Shown here: positions 1,206-29,701 of the stretch, piece by piece
Layout: the number at the start of each line of letters is the position of its first letter
Numbering within the stretch: the stretch's first letter is position 1
Assembly (NCBI RefSeq): GCF_947166415.1
Contig: NZ_CAMVEE010000015.1
Span: forward strand, 1,413-33,412
From: an uncultured Methanobrevibacter sp.
Lineage (GTDB): Archaea; Methanobacteriota; Methanobacteria; Methanobacteriales; Methanobacteriaceae
Reading direction: 5' to 3'
DNA: 32,000 nt
Program-made: the position numbers and the translations under genes
Notes under the pieces: model-generated
Told to the model about the DNA's origin: nothing
What the model saw: only the letters and a program-made list of their open reading frames with translations
The model's database searches: none

Positions 1206-1228
1206 TTTACATAAATGGAGGAATGAAA

Positions 1229-1867
1229 TTGCATATACCTGACGGATTTATACCTATTGCACAATGTCTAGTATACTATGTAATATTGATTGTTGCATTA
1301 TACTTCTCTGTGAAATGGGCAAGATCTAATTTAGATGAAAAACGTATACCTCTCTTAGCTGTGCTTGCTGCCGGTATCTTTGCAATCATGTCCATGAACA
1401 TGCCAATTCCATTCGGTACAAGTGGACATATGGTTGGGGGAGCATTAGTAGCAATTGTATTCCTTGCTCCTGAAGCGGCTGTTTTAGTATTTACCGTAGT
1501 ACTACTTATTCAAGCTCTCATCTTCGGAGACGGAGGAATTACTGCATTAGGTGCAAATGTATTGAATATGGCAATAATTGGAGGATTTGTTGGATTATAC
1601 ACCTTTAAATTCTTACAAGGAACAATTGGAAAATATCCTGCTGCCGGAATCGGAGCATGGTTAGCTACCGTAATTGCAGCTTTAGCTTGTGCAATTGAAA
1701 TGGCAATAGCTGGAACTTTCCCTGTAAACGTGGGCATTCCATCAATGGTATTATACCACTTCTTTATTGGAATAATCGAAGCAGTATTAACCGTAATCGT
1801 TCTTGTCGCCCTAGACAAATTCAGACCAGATTTGCTTGCATGGAATAAAAGTGAAGGAGATGCATAA
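1229..1867 (+). CDS. cbiM: ECF transporter substrate-capture component CbiM/NikM (Ni/Co)
   Basis: N-terminus ..HIPDGF.. followed by multiple TM helices is typical of CbiM/NikM, and the gene sits in M-N-Q-O order. The ORF track starts at ATG 1223, but GGAGG (1217-1221) is only 1 nt from that ATG. It is 7 nt from TTG 1229. Starting at TTG gives the canonical M-H-I-P-D-G N-terminus, whose N-terminal amine and His2 bind the metal in characterised NikM/CbiM proteins. Confidence 0.85.
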   Translation: MHIPDGFIPIAQCLVYYVILIVALYFSVKWARSNLDEKRIPLLAVLAAGIFAIMSMNMPIPFGTSGHMVGGALVAIVFLAPEAAVLVFTVVLLIQALIFGDGGITALGANVLNMAIIGGFVGLYTFKFLQGTIGKYPAAGIGAWLATVIAALACAIEMAIAGTFPVNVGIPSMVLYHFFIGIIEAVLTVIVLVALDKFRPDLLAWNKSEGDA

Positions 1868-1868
1868 A

Positions 1869-2171
1869 ATGGATAAAAAAGATACATATTTAATTGTTGT
1901 TGCAGTGGTCATTTGTATTGTAATTTGCTGTCTTTCACCATATATTGCATCCGGTGACCCAGATGGTCTTGAAAAATCTGCAGAAGATTCTGGACTTGCA
2001 GAAGACTTCTCAATCGAAGAAATCAAAGGAATTCCTAATGCGGTATTCCCAGATTATGCATTTGCAAACGATCCTGATAACCAAGCATTACAAATTGTAG
2101 CCCTTGTGATAGGTGCAATATTGACCTTGGTAGTAGGATACGGAGTTGCAGAAATTGTTAGAAACAGATAG
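1869..2171 (+). CDS. Small two-TM PDGLE-motif protein, the N component of the Ni/Co ECF transporter (NikN/CbiN-like)
   Basis: About 100 aa with N- and C-terminal TM helices and the motif GDPDGLEK (PDGLE). It lies directly after cbiM. AGGAGA at 1854-1859 abuts ATG 1860, so ATG 1869 (MDKKDTYL) is the better-spaced start. The track ORF from 1836 overlaps the cbiM 3' end. Confidence 0.7.
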   Translation: MDKKDTYLIVVAVVICIVICCLSPYIASGDPDGLEKSAEDSGLAEDFSIEEIKGIPNAVFPDYAFANDPDNQALQIVALVIGAILTLVVGYGVAEIVRNR

Positions 2172-2207
2172 AAATTAAATTATTTAATTTCTATTTTCCC
2201 TTTTTTT
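2170..2207 (+). terminator. Perfect 11-bp palindrome plus T7 tract between the N and Q genes (possible internal attenuator or terminator)
   Basis: AGAAATTAAAT (2170-2180) and ATTTAATTTCT (2182-2192) are exact reverse complements. They are followed by attttccc and TTTTTTT (2201-2207). The structure sits in a 118-nt gap inside the M-N-Q-O gene order. Confidence 0.4.
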
Positions 2208-2289
2208 AAAAGTAATTGAAATTTTCTGAAATTGACATGACAAAATAATAATATATTACTAATTTTTAATATTATAGTAGTGAATAACC

Positions 2290-3120
2290 ATGGTAGACAT
2301 AACGCAGATAATGAGATTTGATGATTTGGCATCAAAAAACAGTCCCATCCACAATCTTGAAGGACGAATAAAATTAATTTCAACCATATTCATAATTCTT
2401 GTTTGCGTTGTTTCAAAAGAGATTTTCATACCCATAATACTGGAAATACTGTTATTGATTATTTTAAAAATAGCCGACTTGTCATACATAGATTCTGCAA
2501 AAAGGCTATTGATGTTGCTTCCTTTCGGTGGAGCAATCATCATATTCCAGCCATTCATTCAGCCGGGAAACATACTCTGGAGTTATTCATGGCTGCATGT
2601 TACTGACGTCGGATTGAATTGGGCGATTCTGCTGCTTGTACGTATGATTGTTTGTTTAACTGCAATCATCATATACTCATCAACAACACCCCTGCAGGAA
2701 ATGGCCAGCTCCTTTAGAAAGCTGAAGATGCCAAGGGATTTGGCTATGATACTGTCAATCATGGTTAGGTTCTTGTTTCTGTTTGTCGATGAACTTGCGG
2801 CAATCAGAAAAAGCCAAAAATCAAGAAACTTCAGTATCCACTCCAAAAACACTCCCTACAAATGGAGAGTGAAGCAGGTCGGATATACAATAGGCATGAT
2901 GTTTTTAAAGTCATATGAACAGGGAGAAAGAGTTCATAAAAGTATGGTGAGCCGTGGCTTTTCCGATGCATCTGAAATGTTCAGCGAAAAGAAATCCCCT
3001 GAACGCAGCGATTACGCTTATCTAATAATAATTATTGTAGTTGTAATAGTCCTTGAAATAATCCTATTCAAATATGGTGGACAATTAGGTTACTTCGGTC
3101 AGAATTTAGCAATTAATTAG
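2290..3120 (+). CDS. cbiQ: ECF transporter transmembrane (T) component CbiQ
   Basis: 276-aa multi-TM protein located between the N component and the ABC ATPase. It has the CbiQ/EcfT-like length, topology and Arg-rich cytoplasmic coupling segment (AAIRKSQKSRNF). Confidence 0.75.
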   Translation: MVDITQIMRFDDLASKNSPIHNLEGRIKLISTIFIILVCVVSKEIFIPIILEILLLIILKIADLSYIDSAKRLLMLLPFGGAIIIFQPFIQPGNILWSYSWLHVTDVGLNWAILLLVRMIVCLTAIIIYSSTTPLQEMASSFRKLKMPRDLAMILSIMVRFLFLFVDELAAIRKSQKSRNFSIHSKNTPYKWRVKQVGYTIGMMFLKSYEQGERVHKSMVSRGFSDASEMFSEKKSPERSDYAYLIIIIVVVIVLEIILFKYGGQLGYFGQNLAIN

Positions 3121-3128
3121 GTGAAATA

Positions 3129-3968
3129 ATGGAACATATACATTTGGAAACAAAAAACTTAACTTTTACATATCCCGACGGTACTCAAGCTTTGAAAAAT
3201 GTAAACATTAAAATCAGAAAGGGAGAAAAGATAGCCATTATGGGACCTAATGGTGCTGGAAAATCAACATTATTCTCACATTTCAACGGTTTGAGCGAAC
3301 CTACCTCTGGCCATGTTGAAGTGGACGGCGAAAAGATAGTTTTTGAAAGGGACGAACTGCTAAAGGTTAGGCAAAAAGTAGGAATAGTGTTCCAGGATCC
3401 AAATGACCAGCTGTTTGCACCTACAGTCAAGGAAGATATTGCTTTTGGACCTATGAATCTTGGTCTTGACTATGATGAAGTCGAAAAAAGAATCAAGGAA
3501 TCCTTGGAAATGGTTGGAATGTCCGGCTTTGAAGACAAGACACCTCACCACTTGAGTGGAGGTCAGCAGAAAAGGGTTGCAATTGCAGGCATTATTGCAA
3601 TGAGACCTGAAATAATGATTCTTGATGAACCGACTGCAGGACTTGACCCTGAAGGTGTTGATAAGGTACTGAACATATTGAATAACCTAAATGAAGAAGG
3701 AATAAGCATCGTCATTTCATCACACGACATAGAGATGGTAAACCACTTTGCATACAAGATATTCGTTTTGTATGGTGGTGAAATAATCGCTGAAGGAGAC
3801 AAGCACCAAATATTTTCAGATAAGGAATTATTAAAAAAAGCTCATTTAAAAGCTCCGATAACTACAGAGATTTTATATAAATTGAAAGAAAATGGATTGG
3901 ATGTTGATACAGAAAAAATCAGCATTGAAGAAACAGTAGAGGAAATATTAAAAGCTAAAAATGATTAA
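3129..3968 (+). CDS. cbiO: ECF transporter ATP-binding (A) component CbiO
   Basis: Walker A GPNGAGKST, ABC signature LSGGQQKRV, Walker B ILDEPTAGLD, H-loop SSHD. AGGTGA RBS at 3119-3124. Confidence 0.9.
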   Translation: MEHIHLETKNLTFTYPDGTQALKNVNIKIRKGEKIAIMGPNGAGKSTLFSHFNGLSEPTSGHVEVDGEKIVFERDELLKVRQKVGIVFQDPNDQLFAPTVKEDIAFGPMNLGLDYDEVEKRIKESLEMVGMSGFEDKTPHHLSGGQQKRVAIAGIIAMRPEIMILDEPTAGLDPEGVDKVLNILNNLNEEGISIVISSHDIEMVNHFAYKIFVLYGGEIIAEGDKHQIFSDKELLKKAHLKAPITTEILYKLKENGLDVDTEKISIEETVEEILKAKND

Positions 3969-4467: not shown

Positions 4468-4540
4468 TTTTTAGGTATACAAAAATTCGTTATATTATAT
4501 TCTATAATAACAACTATATAAATATTTAGTTATGGCTAAA
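4468..4540 (-). promoter_or_regulatory. Possible feoA promoter with degenerate iron-box-like sites
   Basis: On the minus strand, box A TTTATATA (plus 4515-4522) is flanked by TTTAGTTATGGCTAAA (4525-4540) and TTTTTAGGTATACAAAAA (4468-4485). Both keep only part of the TTTAGG-N4-CCTAAA palindrome seen upstream of feoB. Confidence 0.35.
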
Positions 4541-4632
4541 AATTTAAAAAAAATGATAATTAGAAAATCTAATCATCATCCTTTTTTGGAATTTTTACGC
4601 CTTTTATTCCGCTTTTACTGCGCATATCATCA

Positions 4633-6651
4633 CTATCCGAATCCTGCTAATTTTCCAATGTTGAAAATCAAGAATGAAACTATATATGCAGTCACTAAAG
4701 TAATGGCACACATAGTTGCCGCCCATTTATAACTGTTTGTTTCCTGTTTGATTGCACCGATAGCTGCGAAACATGGGGTGTACAACAAGGTAAATGCCAT
4801 GAATGAAAACGCGGACAATGGGGTGAAAGTATCATGTACCAAACTGGTAATACCTTCTTCGTCATCCTCTTCCATACCTGCAAGAGTACCGAAGGTTGCA
4901 ACAACAACTTCTTTAGCAGCCAAACCGGCAATGATTGCCACAGCAGCTTGCCAAGTTCCGAATCCTAAAGGAGCAAAGATTGGTGCAATAACGTTACCTA
5001 TCATACCTAATACACTTTGAGCAGATCCGTATTCAACACCCAATGGGAAAATGCTTAATGCCCATAAAACGATTGAACAAGCAAGAATGATTGTACCTGC
5101 TTTTCTTAAGAATCCTTTTACTTTTTCCCAGGTGTGTAATAATACACCTTTGATGGATGGTATTTTATAAGTCGGCAATTCCATAACAAATGGAGTTGAT
5201 AGTCCTTTGAATAATGTCCTCTTAAGGATAGCTGCAACAATAAGTGCAACAGCAATACCTAATAAATAGATTGCAAGCAATACGTTACCTTGATTGTCAG
5301 CGAAAAATGCTCCTATGAAAATAGCATAGATAGGCAATCTTGCAGTACATGACATGAACGGAACAAGCATCATAGCAAGCATACGGTCCCCTTCATTTTC
5401 CATGGTTCTTGTTGCCATGATAGCTGGAACACCACATCCGAATCCTAAAATCATAGGGATGAAAGCTTTACCGTGAAGACCTACAATCTTGTGCATGAGT
5501 TTATCTAAAGTGAAAGCAGCCCTTGCCAAGTAACCACAGTCCTCCAATATACTTAAGAACAGGAACATGAGAATAATAATTGGCAAGAAAGTGAGAACAC
5601 CACCTACTCCACCTATGATACCATCACAGATGAATGATGCAAGATATTCGTTTGCAATAAATCCTCCAATGAATTCACCTAAAGCGCCGAATGCCTGGTC
5701 AATCATATCCTGGAAAGGAGCTCCGATAGTAAATGTTAATTGGAACATCACCCACATTATAATAATAAATATGAATGGGGCTAAAATCCTGTTAGTCACA
5801 ATCTTATCAATTTTATCAGTAGTAGTCTCTTTTTCAACAGCAGGTCTTTTAACAGCTTCGGCCATTAACCCATCGATAAATGCATATCTTGCATTTGCAA
5901 TGACCTCTTCAGGACCTTCCTTATAAACATCATGCAAATGTTTACTTACTTTATCCACTTCAACCAATATTTTGGATCCATAACTGGACTGTTGAACTTT
6001 TTGAATTACAATAGAATCTTTTTCTAATAATTTGATGGCAGTCCAGATTGAAGGAACATCCAATAGATTGCTGTCCTTTTCAATAACGGCCTGAAGCTCA
6101 GATAAATGTCCTTTAATATCATTGCTGTAAGCTAACTTTTCACTAGAGTCAACAGGATTTTTAGCGGCTTTTTCAACAGCATTCAATAAATCTTCAAAAC
6201 CGTCTTTTGTTTTCGCATTAATTTCCACAACTGGGAACCCTAAAAGTTCACTCATCAATGGAATATCAATTATGTGCTCTTTTTTCTTTGCAAAATCATT
6301 CATGTTAAGTGCCATTACCAAGTTAGCACCCAATTCCATCATTTGAACTGTTAAATATAAATTACGCTCCAGATTAGCAGCATCAACCACATTGACAATC
6401 ACATCAGAATCGTCATCTACAATGAAATCTCTTGAAACGATTTCTTCCATAGAATGAGCGCTTAATGCATAATTACCTGGCAAATCGACAACATCATACT
6501 CATAACTTCCATGTTTAAAATGACCTTCCGCCCTTTCAACGGTTTTTCCAGGCCAGTTACCTACATGTTGACGCATACCAGTTAATTGATTGAATACAGT
6601 AGTTTTACCCACGTTAGGGTTTCCTGCTAATCCTACAATTAATTTTGTCAT
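4633..6651 (-). CDS. feoB: Ferrous iron transporter FeoB (N-terminal GTPase plus membrane permease)
   Basis: G1 motif GNPNVGKTT, G3 DLPG and G4 NMND, followed by a long polytopic C-terminal domain. 672 aa. GGGAG RBS. Confidence 0.92.
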   Translation of the reverse strand: MTKLIVGLAGNPNVGKTTVFNQLTGMRQHVGNWPGKTVERAEGHFKHGSYEYDVVDLPGNYALSAHSMEEIVSRDFIVDDDSDVIVNVVDAANLERNLYLTVQMMELGANLVMALNMNDFAKKKEHIIDIPLMSELLGFPVVEINAKTKDGFEDLLNAVEKAAKNPVDSSEKLAYSNDIKGHLSELQAVIEKDSNLLDVPSIWTAIKLLEKDSIVIQKVQQSSYGSKILVEVDKVSKHLHDVYKEGPEEVIANARYAFIDGLMAEAVKRPAVEKETTTDKIDKIVTNRILAPFIFIIIMWVMFQLTFTIGAPFQDMIDQAFGALGEFIGGFIANEYLASFICDGIIGGVGGVLTFLPIIILMFLFLSILEDCGYLARAAFTLDKLMHKIVGLHGKAFIPMILGFGCGVPAIMATRTMENEGDRMLAMMLVPFMSCTARLPIYAIFIGAFFADNQGNVLLAIYLLGIAVALIVAAILKRTLFKGLSTPFVMELPTYKIPSIKGVLLHTWEKVKGFLRKAGTIILACSIVLWALSIFPLGVEYGSAQSVLGMIGNVIAPIFAPLGFGTWQAAVAIIAGLAAKEVVVATFGTLAGMEEDDEEGITSLVHDTFTPLSAFSFMAFTLLYTPCFAAIGAIKQETNSYKWAATMCAITLVTAYIVSFLIFNIGKLAGFG

Positions 6652-6763: not shown

Positions 6764-6925
6764 ATTAGGTTAACCTAAACATAATTTATTATTATGATTT
6801 TATGATATATAAATATTTAGGCATACCAAATAATTTAAAATTTAGGTACGCCTAAAAATTAGAAAGGTTTATATACTATGATGATCAACATTTAATACAA
6901 GTGATGAAATTTAGGCACACCTAAA
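6764..6925. promoter_or_regulatory. Divergent promoter region with four iron-box-like palindromes (TTTAGG-N4-CCTAAA)
   Basis: ATTAGGTTAACCTAAA 6764-6779, TTTAGGCATACCAAAT 6816-6831, TTTAGGTACGCCTAAA 6841-6856, TTTAGGCACACCTAAA 6910-6925. Box A for feoB lies on the minus strand around 6803-6818. A canonical AGAAAGGTTTATATA at 6861-6875 on the plus strand points away from feoB. The first site matches 13 of 14 positions of the start of the classical DtxR consensus, TTAGGTTAGCCTAA (quoted from memory). Confidence 0.65.
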
Positions 6926-17289: not shown

Positions 17290-17410
17290 TTTTAGCCATG
17301 GTTTTATCCAAATATAGCACGTGTTATATAACAGATTGTATAAAATAATATATAAATATTTCGGCTAACCAAAAAAATAGAATAAAAAAATAATAAAAGA
17401 TTGAAAGATC

Positions 17411-19033: not shown

Positions 19034-20812
19034 ATGACTCGTATTTCAATTTTAGACAAAGACCGATGTCAGCCAAAAAAATGTGATTATCTCTGTATTC
19101 ATTACTGTCCAGGTGTTAGAATGGATGAGGACACCATAGTAATTGATGAAGATACTAAAAAACCGCTGATATCTGAAGAATTATGTGAAGGATGCGGTAT
19201 CTGTACCAACAGATGCCCATTTGATGCGGTTACCATTATCAACTTGCCTGAAGCCGCCGGCGATCCGATACACAGATTTGGTCCGAACCAATTTGAACTG
19301 TTTGGACTTCCTACACTTGAAGAGGGAACAGTATTGGGTCTTTTAGGTCAGAACGGTATTGGAAAATCCACAATAATGAATATCCTGGCAGGCAACTTAA
19401 TACCAAACTTTGGAGACTTCGAAAATCCTCCTGAAAACTGGGATAAGGTGATTGAATACTACAAAGGCTCAGCACTTCAAAAGTATTTCCAGGATTTGTC
19501 CGAAGGCAATGTTAAAACCATCTTAAAACCACAGATGGTCGACAAGCTTCCAAAAGTTGTTAAAGGTAAAGTAAGAGACCTGCTCACCAATGTAAATGAA
19601 AGGGACAAGCTTGACTACGTTACAAAAGAATTGCAGCTTGAAAACGTTTTGGACAGAAAAATGGAAAACCTGAGTGGAGGAGAACTTCAAAGGGTTGCGA
19701 TAGCTGCAACAGTGCTTAGGGAAGGTGACTTCTACTACTTCGACGAACCAACATCCTGGCTTGACGTGTCACAAAGGCTTAATGCTGTAAAGGTAATCAG
19801 GTCTCTGGCCGAAGAGGGAAAAAGCGTTTTGGTAATTGAGCACGACCTTGCTACATTGGATGCTCTTTCAGACAACATACATATCCTATACGGTACTCCG
19901 GGCGGATATGGTGTAGTGTCCGGAAGAAAAGGAGTTCGTTTAGGAATCAATGCTTACATCAAAGGATTTTTGGCTGAAGAAAACGTCAGAATCAGAAGAA
20001 ACGCCATTGAATTTACAATAAGGCCGCCTACTCCAGAAGATGAAGGCGAAGCGATTGCAAGCTACACAGACATCCGCAAGGATTATGACGGATTTGAATT
20101 GAGTGCCGACGAAGGTGAAATATTCTATGACGAAATCGTGACCGCATTCGGATCAAACGGTATCGGTAAGACCACATTTGCAAAGATGCTTGCAGGCGTT
20201 GAAGAGCCGACCTCAGGAGAAGTAGATGAGGAAGTTACAATCGCATACAAACCTCAATACATAGTTACAGATTTTGAAGGCAGTGTAAGCGACTTTTTAT
20301 ACATGAACGCACCAAGTTACGGAAGCAAAATCTTTGAAAGTGAAATTATGACTCCTTTCGGATTGAACGACATGCTCGACAAGCCTGTCAAAGGCTTGAG
20401 TGGAGGGGAACTTCAAAGACTAGCTATTGCTTCAACACTTGCAGCGGATGCTGAAATCTATCTTTTTGATGAACCGACCGCATTTTTGGATGTTGAACAG
20501 AGGTTAATAGCTGCAAGAGTAATCAGAAAAATGATTGAAAGTAGAAATGCCGCATCACTTATCGTTGATCACGATATCGTATTTATCGATTACATCTCAG
20601 ATAGGGCAATGGTATTTGACGGTACACCTGGTTTGAACGGTCATGCTTCAAAGCCAACTGACTTGAGAAATGCAATGAACGAATTTTTAGGAAATCTCAA
20701 CATTACATTCAGAAGAGATAAAGAAACAAAAAGGCCTAGAGTTAACAAACTCGACAGTTACAAAGACCGTGAACAAAAAGAAAAAGGAGAATATTATTAC
20801 TTGTCAGATTAA
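19034..20812 (+). CDS. ABCE1 / RNase L inhibitor-type ribosome recycling ATPase
   Basis: N-terminal di-cluster ferredoxin domain ([15 protein letters not shown]...[20 protein letters not shown]). Two ABC cassettes follow (GQNGIGKST / [12 protein letters not shown] / FDEPTSWLD and GSNGIGKTT / [12 protein letters not shown] / FDEPTAFLD). ATG 19034 gives the conserved MTRI start. The track extension from 18959 is not supported. Confidence 0.92.
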
Positions 20813-20904
20813 ATATTCCCTATTTTTTATCTTTTTTTAAAAACTTCCATCCAATATAGATATCAAAAACACGCAATACTTCATTATTAATAGAAAAATA
20901 GTTT

Positions 20905-21211
20905 AAAAAAAAATAGTTATTAAAGTTGAGGAGGAACCTTAATAACTATAGAGAGGCTAAATTATTACAATAGCATGACAAACGACATCTGACTGGCTGA
21001 CTAATGTAATAATTATTCTTAAATACTATGAAGCATGAAAGATCACTCACCATCTTTCAAACATTAGTGATTAGTTCACTAATCTTTGAAAGGCAATGAA
21101 AGATAGAGTGTAAATAGCTATTACTAGCTATTTACGTTAGTTAGTTATATGACCAATTTTAAAATTGAGGTATGGACATATAAATTATCAAACAGGGAAA
21201 TTTGATAATCT
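20905..21211 (-). ncRNA. Candidate structured non-coding RNA, unit A (stand-alone, own promoter)
   Basis: Minus-strand order: promoter module (21205-21265); 5' hairpin TTATCAAA/TTTGATAA (21185-21208); hairpin GTAAATAGCTA/TAGCTATTTAC (21110-21135); long hairpin CTTTCAAA-ATTAGTGA...TCACTAAT-TTTGAAAG (21054-21092); terminal hairpin 20913-20949 with minus-strand loop GGTTCCTCCTCAACT; then T8-9 (plus A-run 20905-20913). The architecture is shared with unit B. The 5' end is inferred. Confidence 0.5.
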
Positions 21212-21265
21212 ATACTATACTACCTAGTAATAACCATATAAATGTTATTAAAGTATTACTATTCA
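21205..21265 (-). promoter_or_regulatory. Duplicate of the Flp-like operon promoter module, facing unit A
   Basis: GATAATCTATACTATACTACCTAGTAATAACCATATAAATGTTATTAAAGTATTACT matches 25005-25060 with about 5 mismatches over about 56 bp. On the minus strand it reads GTAATAC, 10 nt, TTTATATG, GTTATTAC. Confidence 0.6.
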
Positions 21266-21534
21266 TAACAAGCTTTAAATTAGAAATAAAGATGTCAGTT
21301 TCTTTTAAATAAATTAAAAATATGCCCCAACCCAAATTATTCGAAAAGGACAGCCCAACATTCCCCGACGAAAAAAAATAATAAATTAAAAAATCATTAA
21401 AATAATCTTAAATTAAAAAATACTTCCTTAAAATAATTCGCAAATACAAACATGAACTTTAAATAGATATTTCATTAAAAAGATAAAAATAAAGGAGTAA
21501 AATTTGATTTTATCCCCAAACATATTAAAAAATA

Positions 21535-21566
21535 AAATGTAATACTTTTTTAAAAAATAATACTAC
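21535..21566. repeat. 32-bp element GTAATAC-N11-ATAATACTAC (copy 1 of 2)
   Basis: GTAATACTTTTTTAAAAAATAATACTAC (GTAATAC 21539-21545, ATAATAC 21557-21563) is nearly identical to 25342-25369, with the same 11-nt spacing. Confidence 0.55.
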
Positions 21567-21646
21567 ATAGAATAATATTTTTTTATAAAAAAGTAATATA
21601 ATTGTTGAACCATCCAAGAATACAAATTGATTCCAAAAATTAATTT

Positions 21647-21996
21647 AAAAAAAATAGCTATTAAAGACAAGAGGAGCTGATTACTTTAATAGCTATTGTA
21701 GACAGTGAAAGAAACCCATATATGATCATACAAATCTCTTTTTTGATTATTAATTATCTTACATTGATGGAGAAAATAAGCAATATCAATTGGTTATGCC
21801 AACAACCAATATTGCCCGGCTAATGATGAATTATCAACATAAAGATAATTAATTGAAAAATAATCAAAATATTGCTATTCTAACTATTTTTCTAACATTA
21901 GTGATTAACACACTAATCTTAGAAAGACAGTTGAATAATGAGAGTAAATAGCAATAAGCTATTTACAATCATCATATCTGACTATTTTTTAAAACT
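21647..21996 (-). ncRNA. Candidate structured RNA, unit B (3'-UTR position of the Flp-like operon)
   Basis: It begins directly after the mvhD-like stop (21997-21999) with no intervening T-tract. Hairpin GTAAATAGC/GCTATTTAC at 21944-21966. Long hairpin TTTCTAA-ATTAGTG...CACTAAT-TTAGAAA at 21889-21925. Terminal 14-bp perfect hairpin AATAGCTATTAAAG/CTTTAATAGCTATT (21653-21697) with minus-strand loop TAATCAGCTCCTCTTGT, then T8 (plus A-run 21647-21654). Confidence 0.5.
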
Positions 21997-22404
21997 CTAT
22001 TTTAATTCCAATGGCCCAAGTTTTGAGAGAGTTTTATGAAATTCTTCCATAGTTCTCTGAAATTTTTCACCTTCGGATGCTGAAATCCATTCATGACGGA
22101 ATCTCTCTTTTTCAATCCCAAACTCTTCAAGAATATCCTCTACAATTTTTGACCTTCTGGACCATTTGTAGTTACCTGCGTCATAATGGCAGTCACCAAT
22201 ATGGCACCCACCTACAAATACTCCATCGGCACCTTCCTGAAATGCTTTGAAAATCATTGAAGGGTTGATTCTTCCAGAGCACATTACACGAATAATTCTG
22301 ATGTTTGGAGAGTATTGCATACGTGCAGTTCCTGCTGTATCAGCACCACCATAACAACACCAGTTACATAATAAACCTACGATTTTTAAATCATCTGCCA
22401 TCAA
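21997..22404 (-). CDS. MvhD-like iron-sulfur protein (methyl-viologen-reducing hydrogenase delta subunit family)
   Basis: 135 aa. The pattern C.WC.Y.GAD.AG..R.QY....R.IRV.CSGR......AF..GADGV.V.GCH.GDCHY is diagnostic of MvhD/FlpD-type proteins. Confidence 0.85.
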
Positions 22405-22412
22405 ACCACCTC

Positions 22413-23552
22413 TTATAATTCTGTTTTTTCTGGACTGTATAATGGAGGTTTGATATCATCTAAAACTCCAGCTACATAACCAGTTCTATTATAGTATTTT
22501 TTCTGCAATTTATCGAAAATCAATGAAACAGGAATGTCCATCGGACAAACATCATCACATTGGCCACAATCCACACAACTGAAACTCATGTGTGATAGCC
22601 TTACTCCCTGGAACGCTATTGGGAGAGGAGGGATGTTTGCTTCATCCTTGAAGTATGGTTTGTTCAATTCACAGTTTTCGAAGCACCAACAGATCGGACA
22701 AATGTCACGACATGCATAACAGCTAATACATCTGCTCCATTCATCCATTTCACTAACCAGTGGATAAGTGGCATCCTGATTCTTTTTAGCCATTTTGATC
22801 ATGATATTTTCAACTTTTGATCTGCCTTCAACAGCAGGCTCGGAAGGAGACTTGGTTTCAAGAATTCCTGCCTTTTTTGCACCATCTATTAATTCTTGGC
22901 CTTTTTCATCATTGATTTCTATGAATGTCCAGCCGTCCTCTGCTCCCCAGTTTCCACAGGCGATGTTTGCCTTTCTTGGGATTTTCACATCACATCTCTG
23001 GCAGTTTTTACGGCGTCCGTAACCTTCATTTTCAAGGTCATGGATTTTGACTGCCTCTTCGGAACCGTCTGCAAGTTCAATGATAAACTGTCCCTTATCG
23101 ATTTCTTCACTTATGACATCATCAGGATTGGCTTCATAGAACAGGTCAATCATCTCTCTTCCGCTAACAGGAGATACTGTTCCACCACAATTTAAACCAA
23201 TCATGTAAATATTATCCTTATTAATTTTGTGTCTAACTATAAGCTCTTCAACAGCCCTCATATCACATGGTTTGACTGTAAATGCAACTTTTTTATCAAA
23301 GAAATATTTTTGAACAAGATCACCAATCATTGTTGGAGCACAATGATAAGATCCTGCAGTTTTTAATAAATCCTGTGAATCAGTGATGAAAACAGGAAAA
23401 GCATCATAAACATCATCTTGAGGACTTAATGCCAAAACACCATCAACCAATCCTTCATCCAGCAAATATTTGAGAATGCTGGTTACGGCCCCTCCGCATT
23501 CACCAGCTTCATGAATTTCATTATTTTGAGATTTTGCTAAAACATAACTCAT
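22413..23552 (-). CDS. FdhB/FrhB-family F420-reactive flavo-iron-sulfur subunit with C-terminal 2x[4Fe-4S] ferredoxin motifs
   Basis: N-terminal [21 protein letters not shown] and AGS.Y are FrhB/FdhB-like. The C-terminal motifs are [16 protein letters not shown] and [16 protein letters not shown]. Confidence 0.8.
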
Positions 23553-23561
23553 ATTATCCCT

Positions 23562-24575
23562 CTATTTGTTTAATTCCCCGATAACTTCAATAATACCTAA
23601 ATTATCAGACCCAATTACGCAATTGAAATTTTGTACTTCTCCCATTGCATTTACAAAAGACCCGTCTTGTTCCAACCATGTTTTAACTGGAACAACAATG
23701 TTTGAGATTTTTGTAGTATCATTTTCACAGCAGGCAAAAGTGATAATTTTAGATATTTTAGTAAAATCATAATCGAATTCATCTACAACATCGTCATTGA
23801 AAACCAGCAGCAATTTAGTATTATCAAACAACTCCACCATTTCATCTGCGGATTTTGAATCAATGATATCTAAAGCACCTTTTGTATTAGGTTTACTGAA
23901 AACAGGTAGGGCTTTACAATTTAAAGATTCTATTTTATCCAAATCACCCGCTTCATCCACATAATTAAATACAACGACTGAAGAATCATCAATCTCTCCT
24001 TTGAATTTATCTAAAAATTCTTGAACTGAAGAGTTGGAAATTTCATCGGCAATATTGAAAGTAACTGCATTTTCATTTTTGCTTAAGGCATATATCTTGG
24101 CATCATTCTGTTTCGCATGAACAATTCTTCTTCCAATTAACGGATTTTCATACAACAAATCACCAATTACAAATACTTTGCTTGCATTTGCAATCTCATC
24201 ATATGAGGCCACATCCTCAAAATTCTTCAAATCATTTGCATAAAATCCAATATTAAAACCGTTAGATTCTGCGAAATCCTTAATTGCAGCAATATCTTCA
24301 ACACTACAATTACCAGAACAAATTACAGATACGTCTGATGCATTAGCTGATTTAATTTCATTTGAAGCGTCTGCAATTGAATTAGTCAAATCAACATTTT
24401 CGAATTTATTTTTAAAACAATCAATGGAATTTCTTCCATTCAAACAGTTTTTACCAGCGTTAACTGGATGCCTTTTATAGGGAAAAGTCCCAACAATTTC
24501 TTCACCATCTAAAATCACATTTATACCACAACCAACACTGCATGAAGGGCATAACGTGTGTTTAATTTCAAACAT
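23562..24575 (-). CDS. Truncated FdhA-like molybdopterin-oxidoreductase-family protein (N-terminal [4Fe-4S] domain retained, catalytic motif not seen)
   Basis: CPSCSVGCGINV...PVNAGKNCLNGR is the N-terminal Fe-S motif of formate dehydrogenase alpha / Mo-bisPGD enzymes. At 337 aa it is about half the usual length. No Cys-His (or TGA-encoded Sec-His) dipeptide is present anywhere in the translation. Confidence 0.65.
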   Translation of the reverse strand: MFEIKHTLCPSCSVGCGINVILDGEEIVGTFPYKRHPVNAGKNCLNGRNSIDCFKNKFENVDLTNSIADASNEIKSANASDVSVICSGNCSVEDIAAIKDFAESNGFNIGFYANDLKNFEDVASYDEIANASKVFVIGDLLYENPLIGRRIVHAKQNDAKIYALSKNENAVTFNIADEISNSSVQEFLDKFKGEIDDSSVVVFNYVDEAGDLDKIESLNCKALPVFSKPNTKGALDIIDSKSADEMVELFDNTKLLLVFNDDVVDEFDYDFTKISKIITFACCENDTTKISNIVVPVKTWLEQDGSFVNAMGEVQNFNCVIGSDNLGIIEVIGELNK

Positions 24576-24592
24576 AATACATCACCAAATCT

Positions 24593-24943
24593 TTAAAAAG
24601 CAGCATTCAAATTTATTGTAGAACTAATATCCTCTTTAAATAGCTCATAACTTGACTGTCTAGTCAATGAAATCATATTCATCAACATAGTGCATGCATG
24701 ATGGAAAACGATTTGAGAACATTCTTGTTGGATGAATTCTTCAAAAATGTCTAATCTGATCAATCCTTCAACCTTAAAATTTAAATTCAAATTTGAGGAG
24801 GATTTTAAAACAATAATATAGTTTATATCCCTTTGGTCAGTATTTGTATATTCGACAGCCCAATCAACATCCAAATTTAAATTAGTATTTTTGGGATTGT
24901 AATCTTCTCTAATCATGGCCATTCTTTCTACAGTAATTTCCAT
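24593..24943 (-). CDS. Hypothetical 116-aa protein, first gene of the Flp-like operon
   Basis: ATG 24943 (MEITVERMAM...) is preceded by GGAGAG 6 nt upstream. The track start at 24985 is a TTG with no RBS. No motif was recognised. Confidence 0.5.
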   Translation of the reverse strand: MEITVERMAMIREDYNPKNTNLNLDVDWAVEYTNTDQRDINYIIVLKSSSNLNLNFKVEGLIRLDIFEEFIQQECSQIVFHHACTMLMNMISLTRQSSYELFKEDISSTINLNAAF

Positions 24944-25004
24944 ACTACTCTCTCCAATTATTAAAATAATCTCCAAATTATTCAAATTAAAAGAATTAAT
25001 TAAA

Positions 25005-25063
25005 ATAATCTATACCCTACTAACTAGTAATAACCATATAAAGGTTATTATAGTATTACTCTC
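25005..25063 (-). promoter_or_regulatory. Promoter module of the Flp-like operon
   Basis: The minus strand reads AGTAATACTATAATAACCTTTATATGGTTATTACTAG. GTAWTAC lies at plus 25053-25059, 10 nt from box A (plus 25035-42), and the inverted repeat TAATAACC/GGTTATTA straddles the TATA box. The module sits about 60-100 nt upstream of ATG 24943. Confidence 0.65.
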
Positions 25064-25337: not shown

Positions 25338-25369
25338 AGTAGTAATACTTTTTATAAAAATAATACTAC
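25338..25369. repeat. 32-bp element GTAATAC-N11-ATAATACTAC (copy 2 of 2)
   Basis: GTAATACTTTTTATAAAAATAATACTAC (GTAATAC 25342-25348, ATAATAC 25360-25366). It lies between the hcgG-like 3' end and the Flp-like promoter. It also forms an imperfect palindrome, AAGTAGTA...TACTACTT. Confidence 0.55.
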
Positions 25370-26972: not shown

Positions 26973-27097
26973 GTATTACTGAAAATTAATTAAATCAATT
27001 GTATTACAAAATAAAAAGTAATACTAAACTATAATATTCCAAACAAATAGTATTATCAGTATTACTAAAAATAATAAAATAATAGAAAAAATAATAC
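26973..27097. promoter_or_regulatory. Dense GTAWTAC heptamer cluster in the divergent hcgG-hmd control region
   Basis: GTATTAC at 26973-26979, 27001-27007 and 27059-27065. GTAATAC at 27018-27024. Near copies: GTATTAT 27050-27056, ATAATAC 27091-27097, GTAATAA 27182-27188. GTATTAC-N10-GTAATAC forms an inverted pair at 27001-27024. Confidence 0.6.
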
Positions 27098-27285: not shown

Positions 27286-27291
27286 GAAAAA

Positions 27292-28305
27292 ATGAAAGTA
27301 GCAATTTTAGGTGCAGGATGTTACAGAACACATGCTGCAAGTGGAATTACCAACTTCTCAAGAGCTGTAGAAGTTGCTGAAGCAACCGGTAAAGAAAACA
27401 TTTCCATGACCCACTCCACAATCGAAATGGGTGCAGAATTATTAGAATTAGCAGGTGTAGACGAAGTAGTAGTATCCGACCCAGTATTCGACGGAGACTT
27501 CACCGTAGTAGAAGACTTCGACTACGCAGACGTAATCGCAGCTCACAAAGCAGGAACCCCCGAAGAAGTAATGCCAGCAATCAGAGCAAAAGTCACCGAA
27601 TTAGCAGAAACCGTACCAAAACCAGCTAAAGGCGCCATTCACTTTACTCACCCTGAAGACTTAGGAATGAAATGTATCAACGATGACGCAGAAGCAGTAG
27701 CAGACGCTGACTGGGTAATGACCTGGTTACCAAAAGGCGGAATGCAAAAAGAAATCATCGAAAAATTCGCACCTAACCTAAAAGAGGGCGCTATCCTAAC
27801 CCACGCATGTACCATTCCAACCACCAAATTCAACGACATTTTCGAAGAATTAGGCGCAAAAGTAAACGTGGCTTCATATCACCCAGGTGCAGTACCTGAA
27901 ATGAAAGGACAAGTATACATTGCAGAAGGATACGCTGACCAAGCAGCTATCGATACCTTACTCGACTTAGGTAACAAAGCAAGAGGAGCAGCATACACAT
28001 TACCAGCAAACTTATTAGGACCAGTATGTGACATGTGTTCCGCAGTAACCGCAATTACCTACGCAGGTATCTTAGCATACAGAGACACAGTAACTCAAAT
28101 CTTAGGTGCTCCGGACGACTTCGCACAAATGATGGCAAACGAAGCATTGACCCAAGTAACCGCATTAATGAACGACGAAGGTATTGCAAACATGGATGAA
28201 GCATTAGCACCATCCGCATTAACCGGTACCGCTGACTCAATGAACTTCGGATCATTAGCAGAAATCGTTCCTACCGTATTAGATTACTTAGGCAAAGAAG
28301 AATAA
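27292..28305 (+). CDS. hmd: H2-forming methylenetetrahydromethanopterin dehydrogenase ([Fe]-hydrogenase) Hmd, copy 1
   Basis: MKVAILGAGCYRTHAASGITNFSRA is the hallmark Hmd N-terminus. 337 aa. THACTIP contains the Fe-ligating Cys region. Codon usage is strongly biased. hcg genes are adjacent. Confidence 0.93.
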   Translation: MKVAILGAGCYRTHAASGITNFSRAVEVAEATGKENISMTHSTIEMGAELLELAGVDEVVVSDPVFDGDFTVVEDFDYADVIAAHKAGTPEEVMPAIRAKVTELAETVPKPAKGAIHFTHPEDLGMKCINDDAEAVADADWVMTWLPKGGMQKEIIEKFAPNLKEGAILTHACTIPTTKFNDIFEELGAKVNVASYHPGAVPEMKGQVYIAEGYADQAAIDTLLDLGNKARGAAYTLPANLLGPVCDMCSAVTAITYAGILAYRDTVTQILGAPDDFAQMMANEALTQVTALMNDEGIANMDEALAPSALTGTADSMNFGSLAEIVPTVLDYLGKEE

Positions 28306-28319
28306 ACACAATAAGTTTT

Positions 28320-28360
28320 AATTGTTGATTTTTATCAACAATTAATTTAACTTATTTTTT
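28320..28360 (+). terminator. Hairpin plus T6 after hmd copy 1
   Basis: AATTGTTGAT (28320-28329) tttt ATCAACAATT (28334-28343), then TTTTTT at 28355-28360. Confidence 0.5.
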
Positions 28361-28436
28361 AAGTGTTTAAAAAAAAGAACCCTTAAAAAATAAGTTAATT
28401 TTTATACTTATGAAAAATTGGAGATTGGTGTTAAAA

Positions 28437-29582
28437 TTGTTAGAAAAACTTAAAAAAATATTCGGCGTTAAAGATGCAGTAGAAACTGTTGAAGCAAAAA
28501 CTGTCGATGAAAAAATTGAAGAAGAAATCATAGCCGTAGAAGAAACCGTTGAAAAAACAAAGAAAATGAAAGTGGCAATTTTAGGTGCAGGATGTTACAG
28601 AACACATGCTGCAAGTGGAATTACCAACTTCTCAAGAGCTGTAGAAGTTGCTGAAGCAACCGGTAAAGAAAACATTTCCATGACCCACTCCACAATCGAA
28701 ATGGGTGCAGAATTATTAGAATTAGCAGGTGTAGACGAAGTAGTAGTATCCGACCCAGTATTCGACGGAGACTTCACCGTAGTAGAAGACTTCGACTACG
28801 CAGACGTAATCGCAGCTCACAAAGCAGGAACCCCCGAAGAAGTAATGCCAGCAATCAGAGCAAAAGTCACCGAATTAGCAGAAACCGTACCAAAACCAGC
28901 TAAAGGCGCCATTCACTTTACTCACCCTGAAGACTTAGGAATGAAATGTATCAACGATGACGCAGAAGCAGTAGCAGACGCTGACTGGGTAATGACCTGG
29001 TTACCAAAAGGCGGAATGCAAAAAGAAATCATCGAAAAATTCGCACCTAACCTAAAAGAGGGCGCTATCCTAACCCACGCATGTACCATTCCAACCACCA
29101 AATTCAACGACATTTTCGAAGAATTAGGCGCAAAAGTAAACGTGGCTTCATATCACCCAGGTGCAGTACCTGAAATGAAAGGACAAGTATACATTGCAGA
29201 AGGATACGCTGACCAAGCAGCTATCGATACCTTACTCGACTTAGGTAACAAAGCAAGAGGAGCAGCATACACATTACCAGCAAACTTATTAGGACCAGTA
29301 TGTGACATGTGTTCCGCAGTAACCGCAATTACCTACGCAGGTATCTTAGCATACAGAGACACAGTAACTCAAATCTTAGGTGCTCCGGACGACTTCGCAC
29401 AAATGATGGCAAACGAAGCATTGACCCAAGTAACCGCATTAATGAACGACGAAGGTATTGCAAACATGGATGAAGCATTAGCACCATCCGCATTAACCGG
29501 TACCGCTGACTCAATGAACTTCGGATCATTAGCAGAAATCGTTCCTACCGTATTAGATTACTTAGGTAAAGAAGAAGAATAA
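28437..29582 (+). CDS. hmd: Hmd copy 2, with an N-terminal E/K/V-rich extension
   Basis: From ATG 28566 the sequence is the same protein as copy 1 plus one extra C-terminal Glu. The frame stays open upstream to ATG 28410. There is no SD before ATG 28566. TTG 28437 is preceded by GGTG (28427-28430) in the same ttGGTGttaaa(a)TTG context as the hcgA start at 29702. Alternative starts are 28410 and 28566. Confidence 0.85.
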   Translation: MLEKLKKIFGVKDAVETVEAKTVDEKIEEEIIAVEETVEKTKKMKVAILGAGCYRTHAASGITNFSRAVEVAEATGKENISMTHSTIEMGAELLELAGVDEVVVSDPVFDGDFTVVEDFDYADVIAAHKAGTPEEVMPAIRAKVTELAETVPKPAKGAIHFTHPEDLGMKCINDDAEAVADADWVMTWLPKGGMQKEIIEKFAPNLKEGAILTHACTIPTTKFNDIFEELGAKVNVASYHPGAVPEMKGQVYIAEGYADQAAIDTLLDLGNKARGAAYTLPANLLGPVCDMCSAVTAITYAGILAYRDTVTQILGAPDDFAQMMANEALTQVTALMNDEGIANMDEALAPSALTGTADSMNFGSLAEIVPTVLDYLGKEEE

Positions 29583-29589
29583 GTTAAAA

Positions 29590-29627
29590 TGTTGGATTTA
29601 ATCCAACAATTATTTAACTTATTTTTT
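29590..29627 (+). terminator. Hairpin plus T6 after hmd copy 2
   Basis: TGTTGGAT (29590-29597) tta ATCCAACA (29601-29608), then TTTTTT at 29622-29627. It is homologous to 28320-28360 but differs by paired stem changes. Confidence 0.5.
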
Positions 29628-29701
29628 AATTGTTATCTGAAAATAGCCATTAAAAAATAAGTTAGGATATTTAATTTAATAGAGTTTAAGTTGGTGTTAA
29701 A

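Follow-up and report, generated by a model that had tools for sequence, protein, structure and literature searches.

A conserved structured RNA directly downstream of elpC in Methanobrevibacter and its promoter-bearing sibling

The 32,000-nucleotide (nt) stretch of an uncultured Methanobrevibacter sp. analysed here (contig NZ_CAMVEE010000015.1 of assembly GCF_947166415.1, positions 1,413 to 33,412; hereafter the window) is AT-rich, with a G+C content of ~35%, and carries on its minus strand the elpXABC operon, followed by two hairpin-rich units, B and A (Table 1). Unit B, which begins at the elpC stop codon and is modelled with seven helices, P1 to P7, is a genuine clade-specific structured RNA, read on the elp strand directly 3′ of elpC, whereas unit A is a related RNA gene with a predicted promoter of its own. 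An earlier note, made from the sequence alone, had placed the hairpin series on the minus strand right after an mvhD-like stop codon, and all the arms that it quoted were found in place. The operon that it called Flp-like can now be named more precisely as elpXABC, after the genes described by Nomura et al. (Nature 2025; PMC12350162). As that note also stated, no T-tract separates unit B from the coding region; between the TAG stop codon of elpC (21999-21997) and the unit there is only a T4 run. Both units are far more stable than dinucleotide-shuffled sequences, with RNAfold z-scores of -8.1 for unit B and -8.5 for unit A.

Table 1 Coordinates of the elp-associated RNAs and other features of the window (positions as read along the feature or as intervals)
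Feature	Position	Strand	Remarks
Unit B, elpC-3′ structured RNA, P1-P7	21647..21996	minus	~350 nt, from elpC stop codon to T-run
P1 hairpin of B, GTAAATAGC/GCTATTTAC	21944..21966	minus	double changes in 8/12 pairs, 64 sequences; e.g. C-G 53 / U-A 11
P2 two-tier hairpin of B, G-G 1x1 internal loop	21889..21925	minus	98.5% of cells pair, 4 double-change pairs (64 sequences)
P3 hairpin of B, AAUAGUUAGAAUA/UAUUUUGAUUAUU, G-U-rich	21859..21888	minus	96.8% of cells pair
Central domain of B, long helix P4 enclosing two conserved strands and P5	21749..21853	minus	P4: 87.9% of cells pair, 7 double-change pairs
Conserved strand UCAUCAUUAGCC within P4	21829-21818	minus	
P5 hairpin loop UUGGCAUAA	21802-21794	minus	
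Conserved strand UUUUCUCCA within P4	21777-21768	minus	
P6 hairpin of B, AAAGAGAUUUGUAUG/UAUAUGGGUUUCUUU	21708..21741	minus	95.1% of cells pair, 6 double-change pairs
Linker CACUGUCUAC between P6 and P7, single-stranded, near-invariant	21698..21707	minus	alignment A2 columns; once in window
P7 terminal hairpin of B, 14 bp, loop UAAUCAGCUCCUCUUGU, then T-run	21647..21697	minus	96% of cells pair; presumed 3′ end
Unit A RNA gene: P0, P1, P2, P3, variable middle, P7 loop UUCCUCCUCAA, T9	20905..21212	minus	
Unit A promoter: module AGTAATAC-TTTAATAAC at 21260-21244, TATA box TTTATATGG at 21242-21234	21212..21260	minus	
elpXABC operon	21997..24985	minus	Pfam matches
ElpX	24985-24593	minus	
ElpA, FdhA-like, without MopB domain	24575-23562	minus	
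ElpB, FrhB/FdhB-like	23552-22413	minus	
ElpC, MvhD/FlpD family	22404-21997	minus	Pfam FlpD E = 1.4e-54
elpXABC promoter, duplicated before unit A	25005..25060	minus	repeat family D5
AGTAWTACT palindromes and half-sites	990-1029, 1198-1206, 21244-21260, 25044-25060, 25341-25349, 26973-27066		
CbiM/CbiQ/ABC nickel/cobalt transporter (cbiM/nikM-type)	1223-3968		
feoB	4633-6651		

The evidence for structure comes from paired substitutions, two of which had been pointed out between the units of the window and proved real. In the outer tier of P2, which reads TTTCTAA-G-ATTAGTG / CACTAAT-G-TTAGAAA in unit B (21925-21889) and CTTTCAAA-G-ATTAGTG / CACTAAT-G-TTTGAAAG in unit A (21092-21054), an A-to-T change in one arm is matched by a T-to-A change in the opposite arm; in the terminal hairpin, with arms AATAGCTATTAAAG / CTTTAATAGCTATT in unit B (21697-21653) and ATAGTTATTAA(GG) / (CT)TTAATAACTAT in unit A (20949-20913), T-to-C is answered by A-to-G. 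The wider comparison of homologs that the earlier note had proposed was carried out by mapping the centroid fold of the window sequence onto a MAFFT alignment of 54 B-type sequences, with 3′ partners slid by 1-3 columns and 500 shuffles as controls. Under the seven-helix model 88.7% of the cells pair, compared to 36-55% in the slid controls, and double changes affect 37 pairs (152 cells), compared to 19-29 pairs (43-63 cells); none of the 500 shuffles reached the observed pairing or double-change values. P1, P2, P3, the long-range helix P4, P6, and P7 are each paired in 86-97% of cells. In the 5′ domain, for which 51 B-type and 13 A-type copies were combined into a set of 64 sequences, pairing holds in 96.5% of the cells and double changes occur at 14 pairs. 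Furthermore, RNAalifold recovers P1, P2, P4, and P7 unguided. Covariation is thus kept across homologs and no conserved open reading frame (ORF) was found on the sense strand among the orthologs, which bears out the earlier argument for selection on structure rather than on an encoded peptide.

Individual helices differ in how they vary. P2 is the best-conserved sequence of the family and is common to unit A; its G-G mismatch is replaced by G-C or C-G in some lineages. The first pair of P3 is GU in 23, AU in 22, and GC in 19 of the 64 sequences, and unpaired in none. RNAalifold also proposes a basal extension of P2, AAUUGUC/GAUAGUU (window 21930-21876; columns 55-61 with 102-108 of alignment A5), that is mutually exclusive with P3 and shows some double changes (C-G 38, U-A 8, but C-A 14). 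P3 is the better supported of the two because the shared position is broken in 0 of 64 cells, compared to 14 of 64 for the extension, which may represent an alternative conformation. The arms of P5 are unrelated in sequence between lineages and are badly aligned by MAFFT, but the architecture of the central domain is the same throughout: orthologs folded singly all display P4, UCAUCAUUAGCC, the P5 loop UUGGCAUAACC, UUUUUCUCCAU, and the return strand of P4. Two further interactions were considered and rejected. A pseudoknot between UUAGCC and the P5 loop GGCAUAA could form six pairs with a bulge, but the variants inspected show no covariation, and pairing of the 5′ motif GCCAUAU with the 3′ strand of P6, AUAUGG, is lost in the L033-type lineage.

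The strand is given by the same alignments. G-U pairs are abundant, many positions alternate between A-U, G-U, and G-C, and one pair of P7 is AU in 26 and GU in 24 of the 54 B-type sequences, which fixes the orientation. Covariance model R1, built on the 5′ domain, scores the elp (sense) strand at 68-116 bits and the antisense strand at 26-42 bits. Given the abundance of G-U pairs and the higher sense scores, the RNA is read in the elp direction. Antisense ORFs of 18-33 amino acids around a conserved TCATCAT block have variable starts and are sometimes missing. In archaeal C/D box small RNAs (sRNAs), the C (RUGAUGA) and D (CUGA) boxes lie ~50-70 nt apart. An assignment of unit B to this class was dismissed, AUGAUGA at the 5′ end being restricted to the window and its closest relatives, and a version based on TCATCAT/TCAG would put the boxes ~160 nt apart on the antisense strand, in conflict with the strand evidence; a kink-turn was likewise ruled out on strand and poor conservation.

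Unit B is a regular companion of elp operons. An ElpC scan with one genome per species yielded 80 loci, and nhmmer searches with a profile hidden Markov model of unit B gave full-length matches immediately behind the elpC stop at 55 of these loci, every one from Methanobrevibacter. The family numbers ~85 members, and its cultured carriers include Methanobrevibacter sp. YE315, M. thaueri, and M. millerae. Genome loci and metagenome contigs taken together, it occupies the same place in ~65 Methanobrevibacter loci: on the coding strand, downstream of the stop codon, and at the 3′ end of the operon, that is, in the position of sRNAs derived from a 3′ untranslated region (3′UTR). The clade carries several paralogs of the elp operon, and unit B is flush with the elpC stop codon in each. 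At one locus (L003:7455-14315) two elp operons stand in tandem, elpXABC-B followed by elpABC-B, each with its own 3′ RNA; this pair is an example of the kind of duplication that probably gave rise to unit A. Relative to the window, unit B has a mean identity of 80%, as opposed to 66% at third codon positions in elpC and 61% in the next 300 nt, which argues that unit B is under purifying selection. The family is modular, with the B copies of L024 and L027 lacking the 5′ domain and that of L047 retaining just the TCATCAGCC motif and P7.

Beyond this clade the RNA was not recovered. Searches with model R1 were negative in M. olleyae-type, Methanobacterium, and other distant loci, and by these searches the family is confined to one Methanobrevibacter clade. 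In M. olleyae-type genomes (L055-L057, L059-L061, and L063; e.g., L061:10403-10860) unit B is missing and elpC is directly followed by a different, mutually conserved, hairpin-rich region of ~400 nt that begins with TTAGACTGTTGAACAAT and in which some arms vary in pairs (TATTAC/GTAATA and AATATT/AATATT). This region may represent a 3′ RNA that is analogous to unit B or has diverged very far from it. A context-independent metagenome scan with the P2 motif retrieved 16 contigs, each of which carries either an elpC-3′ copy or an A copy adjacent to the RLI (RLI/ABCE1) gene, and viral contigs gave no match to the motif. A mobile element, such as a miniature inverted-repeat transposable element, was ruled out: there are one or two copies per contig, always linked to elp or RLI, and no viral matches. 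Among the 4227 models of Rfam 15, none matched the window at the gathering score, and at E<=10 the region 20700-22100 yielded only noise of the microRNA or small nucleolar RNA type, at 14-23 bits compared to cut-offs of 60-208; a tRNA/tmRNA scan found nothing. A literature search on Methanobrevibacter noncoding RNA or an flpD element turned up no relevant description. The breadth of conservation, the full P1-P7 model, the identification of the operon with elp, and the shared promoter module are new here.

The earlier note described the units as paralogs with the same hairpin series. This holds for P1-P3 and the terminal hairpin: the 5′ parts correspond over ~130 nt, with a 76-nt core that is 78% identical, and the terminal hairpins are homologous as well, whereas the middle ~150 nt is unrelated and unit A has an additional 5′ hairpin, P0. 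In model R1 it scores 87.7 bits on the sense strand and 33.2 bits on the antisense strand. An alignment of A-type copies comprises 16 sequences, 13 of which lie between unit B and the convergent RLI gene and three between hcgG and elpX, so that in the latter the A-type gene and its promoter stand upstream of elp (L013:6530-6930, L014:6380-6780, and L017:6574-6970). The A-type RNA is conserved in 13 species with respect to P0 (with a variable loop), P1-P3, P7, and the T-run, but not in its middle part. The P7 loop contains CUCCUC in 10 and CUCC in all of the 12 intact RLI-adjacent copies. The A copies of L017 and L025 (L025:11070-11470) are without P2 and for this reason look decayed.

The note's statement that unit A has a copy of the operon's promoter is correct at the level of sequence: the promoters of unit A and elp share 91% identity over a 56-nt core, and a second block common to the upstream regions of A and elpX lies ~330 nt further upstream. 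Judging by the usual archaeal spacing between TATA box and start, transcription of unit A would begin near 21212. Its promoter, GAGTAATACTTTAATAACATTTATATGGTTATTACTAGTTAGTATAGTATAGATTATCA, is almost invariant in 13 species, even where ElpA is just 55-57% identical to that of the window; ElpC of the window is 99% identical to a protein of Methanobrevibacter sp. YE315, which places the window in a rumen-type Methanobrevibacter. Unit A probably goes back to a tandem duplication of elp from which the coding part has since been lost, and it is now maintained as a gene. The two units form a pair of siblings, homologous in P1-P3 and P7, of which A has an independent, predicted promoter.

Both promoters contain a module that extends to other genes of the window. 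AGTAWTAC-TTTAATAAC-NTTTATAT (AGTAWTAC-TTTAATAAC-TATA) stands directly upstream of the TATA box at three promoters, those of the cbiM/nikM-type transporter, elp, and unit A. Other loci have it in corresponding places, and it precedes elp in M. olleyae-type genomes and Methanobacterium as well. The palindrome AGTAWTACT occurs seven times in the window, compared to 0.25 expected, namely at the cbiM, elp, and unit A promoters and in the spacer between hcgG and hmd, which contains several GTATTAC/GTAATAC half-sites. No copy of the AGTAWTAC module was found within unit B or upstream of it inside elpC. Lacking such a module and beginning right at the end of elpC, unit B would be co-transcribed with elp.

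The genes that share this module point to nickel. Strict nickel limitation in Methanothermobacter marburgensis induces ElpX/A/B/C, Hmd, HcgG, a nickel transporter, and a NikR homolog, while the [NiFe]-hydrogenases Frh and MvhAGD vanish and Elp takes over from Mvh as electron donor to Hdr (PMC12350162). The window holds the same set of functions: a nickel/cobalt transporter, feoB, two hmd genes, hcgB/C/G, and elp. The AGTAWTAC module is a candidate operator of a nickel-limitation regulon. In the same study MvhB stayed constant and mvh transcription was reported not to fall under nickel limitation (PMC12350162), which leaves room for post-transcriptional control.

We tentatively favour, with a confidence somewhat short of even, the reading that units A and B are co-induced regulatory RNAs acting in trans, B as a 3′UTR or 3′-derived RNA and A as an independent sRNA. 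Unit B would be transcribed as the long 3′UTR of the elpXABC mRNA, from which it might then be freed, and unit A would be expressed as an independent gene from the duplicate elp promoter; because A is driven by this duplicate and B lies 3′ of elp, both would appear whenever elp is induced, which, by analogy with M. marburgensis, would be under nickel limitation. Regulation in trans would then proceed by pairing of unpaired, pyrimidine-rich motifs resembling the anti-Shine-Dalgarno sequence of 16S rRNA with GGAGG-type sites of target mRNAs, the candidate motifs being CUCCUC in the terminal loop, UUUUCUCCAU in the central internal loop, and CACUGUCUAC before P7. Among the B copies, CUCC is present in the central internal loop of 43 of 54 and CUCC or CCUC in the terminal loop of 27 of 54.

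Potential targets were sought among nickel enzymes. Since none of the fetched elp loci held a [NiFe]-hydrogenase gene, four mvh loci were obtained through MvhD homologs; one further entry, P0111, turned out to be bacterial. In these mvhDGAB loci (L103:2780-5620, L104:70-1480, and L100:2795-4200 among the four), mvhD, mvhG, and mvhA have the Shine-Dalgarno sequence (A)GGAGG(A). The loop UCCUCCUC of unit A is an 8-nt complement of the mvhD site, and mvhB and the neighbouring mrtB have GAGGUG sites instead of GGAGG. In a rough survey of 584 ORFs from Methanobrevibacter loci, a redundant sample, GGAGG was found upstream of 3% and GGAGGA upstream of 0.9%. This distribution fits selective masking of Mvh translation, although it proves nothing. 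A more specific proposal, which we regard as doubtful, is that A and B are an archaeal, nickel-specific counterpart of RyhB, induced by nickel limitation. Co-expressed with the Elp/Hmd bypass, they would block translation of mvhDGA, and perhaps of frh and other nickel enzymes, by masking the unusual GGAGG sites of these genes. If true, it would explain the loss of Mvh protein despite mvh transcription that is reportedly not downregulated.

Several observations weigh against action in trans by base pairing under nickel control. The complementarity to the GGAGG(A) sites of mvhD/G/A spans 7-8 nt and is generic, and a Methanosphaera-like lineage, from a genus in which the RNA was never sought, has the mvhDGA Shine-Dalgarno core too. 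The CUCCUC loop of the earlier note is found in both units of the window, with 8 T after unit B (two of them the last bases of the stem) and 9 T after unit A, but CUCCUC occupies the terminal loop of just 17 of the 54 B orthologs. RNAduplex comparisons of A and B with the 29 start regions of the window were uninformative in such AT-rich sequence, and a conserved T5 run inside P3 could partly terminate transcription in an archaeon. Seven helices and near-invariant stems, P2 above all, exceed what a base-pairing sRNA usually needs, which hints at a protein partner or another function. As for nickel, documented cases of Elp induction come only from M. marburgensis and M. thermolithotrophicus (PMC12350162), and regulation by nickel would thus be extrapolated from a different genus. 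The half-sites GTATTAC/GTAATAC are only loosely like the published NikR box, GTGTTAC-N13/14-GTAACAC (PMC545781), and their spacing is mismatched; a NikR identity of the module is kept as a candidate only.

Some of the same features would suit an RNA that acts purely in cis, as a 3′UTR that protects the elp mRNA from 3′-to-5′ decay, sets termination or processing, or tunes elpC translation. Unit B is flush with the stop codon of elpC in every elp paralog and ends in a stable hairpin and T-run, and M. olleyae-type genomes have a different conserved hairpin-rich ~400 nt in its place, so that a structured end rather than a given sequence may be what matters. However, unit A keeps P1-P3 and P7 under its own conserved promoter without any coding sequence, sometimes upstream of elp, and a stabiliser would have no need of near-invariant single-stranded stretches; on balance we consider an exclusive role in cis plausible for unit B but unlikely overall. 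If it were correct, unit B would be among the longest conserved structured 3′UTRs known in an archaeon. Another alternative is an RNA that binds protein, whether as scaffold, decoy, or component of a ribonucleoprotein, with the conserved loops and the invariant P2 stem, including its G-G mismatch, as recognition sites and a protein of the Lsm/SmAP type, another RNA-binding protein, or a nickel-response factor as candidate partner. Here the sequence itself is conserved in all lineages in P2, the P5 loop GGCAUAACC, and the linker CACUGUCUAC, and the size and modular two-domain architecture go beyond typical base-pairing sRNAs. Yet no known protein-binding motif was recognised, the sense strand has no conserved C/D boxes, Rfam gave no match, and no partner gene co-varies in the neighbourhood, and we rate this explanation as rather improbable.

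Two further alternatives deny a function to the RNA in whole or in part. The tandem elp operons of L003, each with a B unit, the ~400 nt of elp upstream architecture kept at the A locus, and the decayed A copies in L025 and L017 are what would be expected if unit A, and possibly parts of B, were non-functional leftovers of tandem elp duplications that are slow to decay. But conservation of the A promoter and P0-P3 lies far above that of the intergenic DNA around them, in species whose ElpA is only ~55% identical to that of the window, unit B exceeds synonymous-like sites in conservation, and compensatory changes keep the helices, all of which makes this very improbable. Equally, the palindrome AATAGCTATT and the inverted repeats could act in DNA, as operators or as recombination or replication signals: ATAGCTAT occurs five times in the window, compared to 0.6 expected, three of the five being in units A and B, and it is present in both arms of P1 and P7. 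The P1 variant arms AATAGTTATT/AATAACTATT are nevertheless non-palindromic and still pair with each other, and the G-U pairs and the asymmetry of covariance-model scores between sense and antisense suit RNA and not duplex DNA. Peptide coding, a related minor alternative, is opposed by the lack of a conserved sense ORF and by antisense ORFs that are short and vary in their starts. Taken with it, a role in DNA is the least probable of all the explanations and hardly to be expected.

Regulation in trans by A and B, the tentatively favoured reading, would resemble several known systems without matching any. In bacteria, 3′UTR-derived sRNAs with sibling genes include CpxQ, SroC, and DapZ. As in these, unit B lies at the 3′ end of an operon, shares its terminator hairpin, and would follow its expression, and a paralog bears its own promoter; unlike them, it belongs to an archaeal host, is much longer (~350 nt, with seven helices), is conserved over its whole length, and has no known context of an Hfq- or ProQ-type chaperone. 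The kind, a 3′UTR-embedded RNA with a free-standing sibling, is thus known in bacteria and unusual in archaea, and the present example is unusually large and structured. sRNA41 of Methanosarcina mazei and RsaE and RNAIII of S. aureus are sRNAs with CU-rich or C-rich loops that mask ribosome-binding sites in polycistronic mRNAs. A and B are predicted to expose similar CU-rich, anti-Shine-Dalgarno-like motifs in hairpin loops, but share no sequence or structural homology with them, and the loop motif of B is partly conserved (27/54). Metal-sparing sRNAs are represented by RyhB, PrrF, and FsrA, which respond to iron. The likeness would lie in membership of a candidate metal-limitation regulon, the module being common to the nickel/cobalt transporter and the nickel-free replacement enzymes (PMC12350162), and the difference in the metal, which would be nickel, and in the repression of nickel-enzyme mRNAs, which is hypothetical. 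The NiCo riboswitch (czcD motif) is also a structured RNA in a nickel-related context, but unit B is situated 3′ of its operon rather than in a 5′ leader and has no match in Rfam. P7 (13-14 bp) followed by 8-9 T looks like an intrinsic terminator, although the T-run is interrupted in several orthologs. Archaeal termination requires oligo-T only, and the stem sequence of P7 is conserved far past the needs of a terminator.

In the rumen, methane is produced mainly by Methanobrevibacter of this clade, and the rerouting of methanogens between nickel-dependent and nickel-free hydrogenases was first described in 2025. A unit B on every elp operon of the clade, together with a sibling under a duplicate of the elp promoter, offers a testable candidate for the post-transcriptional layer of this switch. 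To our knowledge, conserved regulatory RNAs with structural support are scarce in archaea, and an RNA embedded in a 3′UTR and accompanied by a free-standing paralog would stand out among them for its clarity.

Other repeats were observed among the metal-related genes of the window. The tandem hmd genes (27292-28305 and 28410-29582) are 100% identical over 300 nt (27289-27588 and 28563-28862), as might result from a recent duplication or from gene conversion; the second hmd ORF has an N-terminal extension of 52 residues. Each hmd gene is followed by a hairpin-rich block of 81 nt (28317-28397 and 29584-29664), the two blocks being 77% identical. Finally, an AT-rich repeat, (A)TATATAAATATTTAGG..CC(T)AAA, is found at both ends of feoB (4515-4549 and 6806-6865) and again near 17345 (17345-17376), and could be a promoter or operator that iron-related genes have in common.

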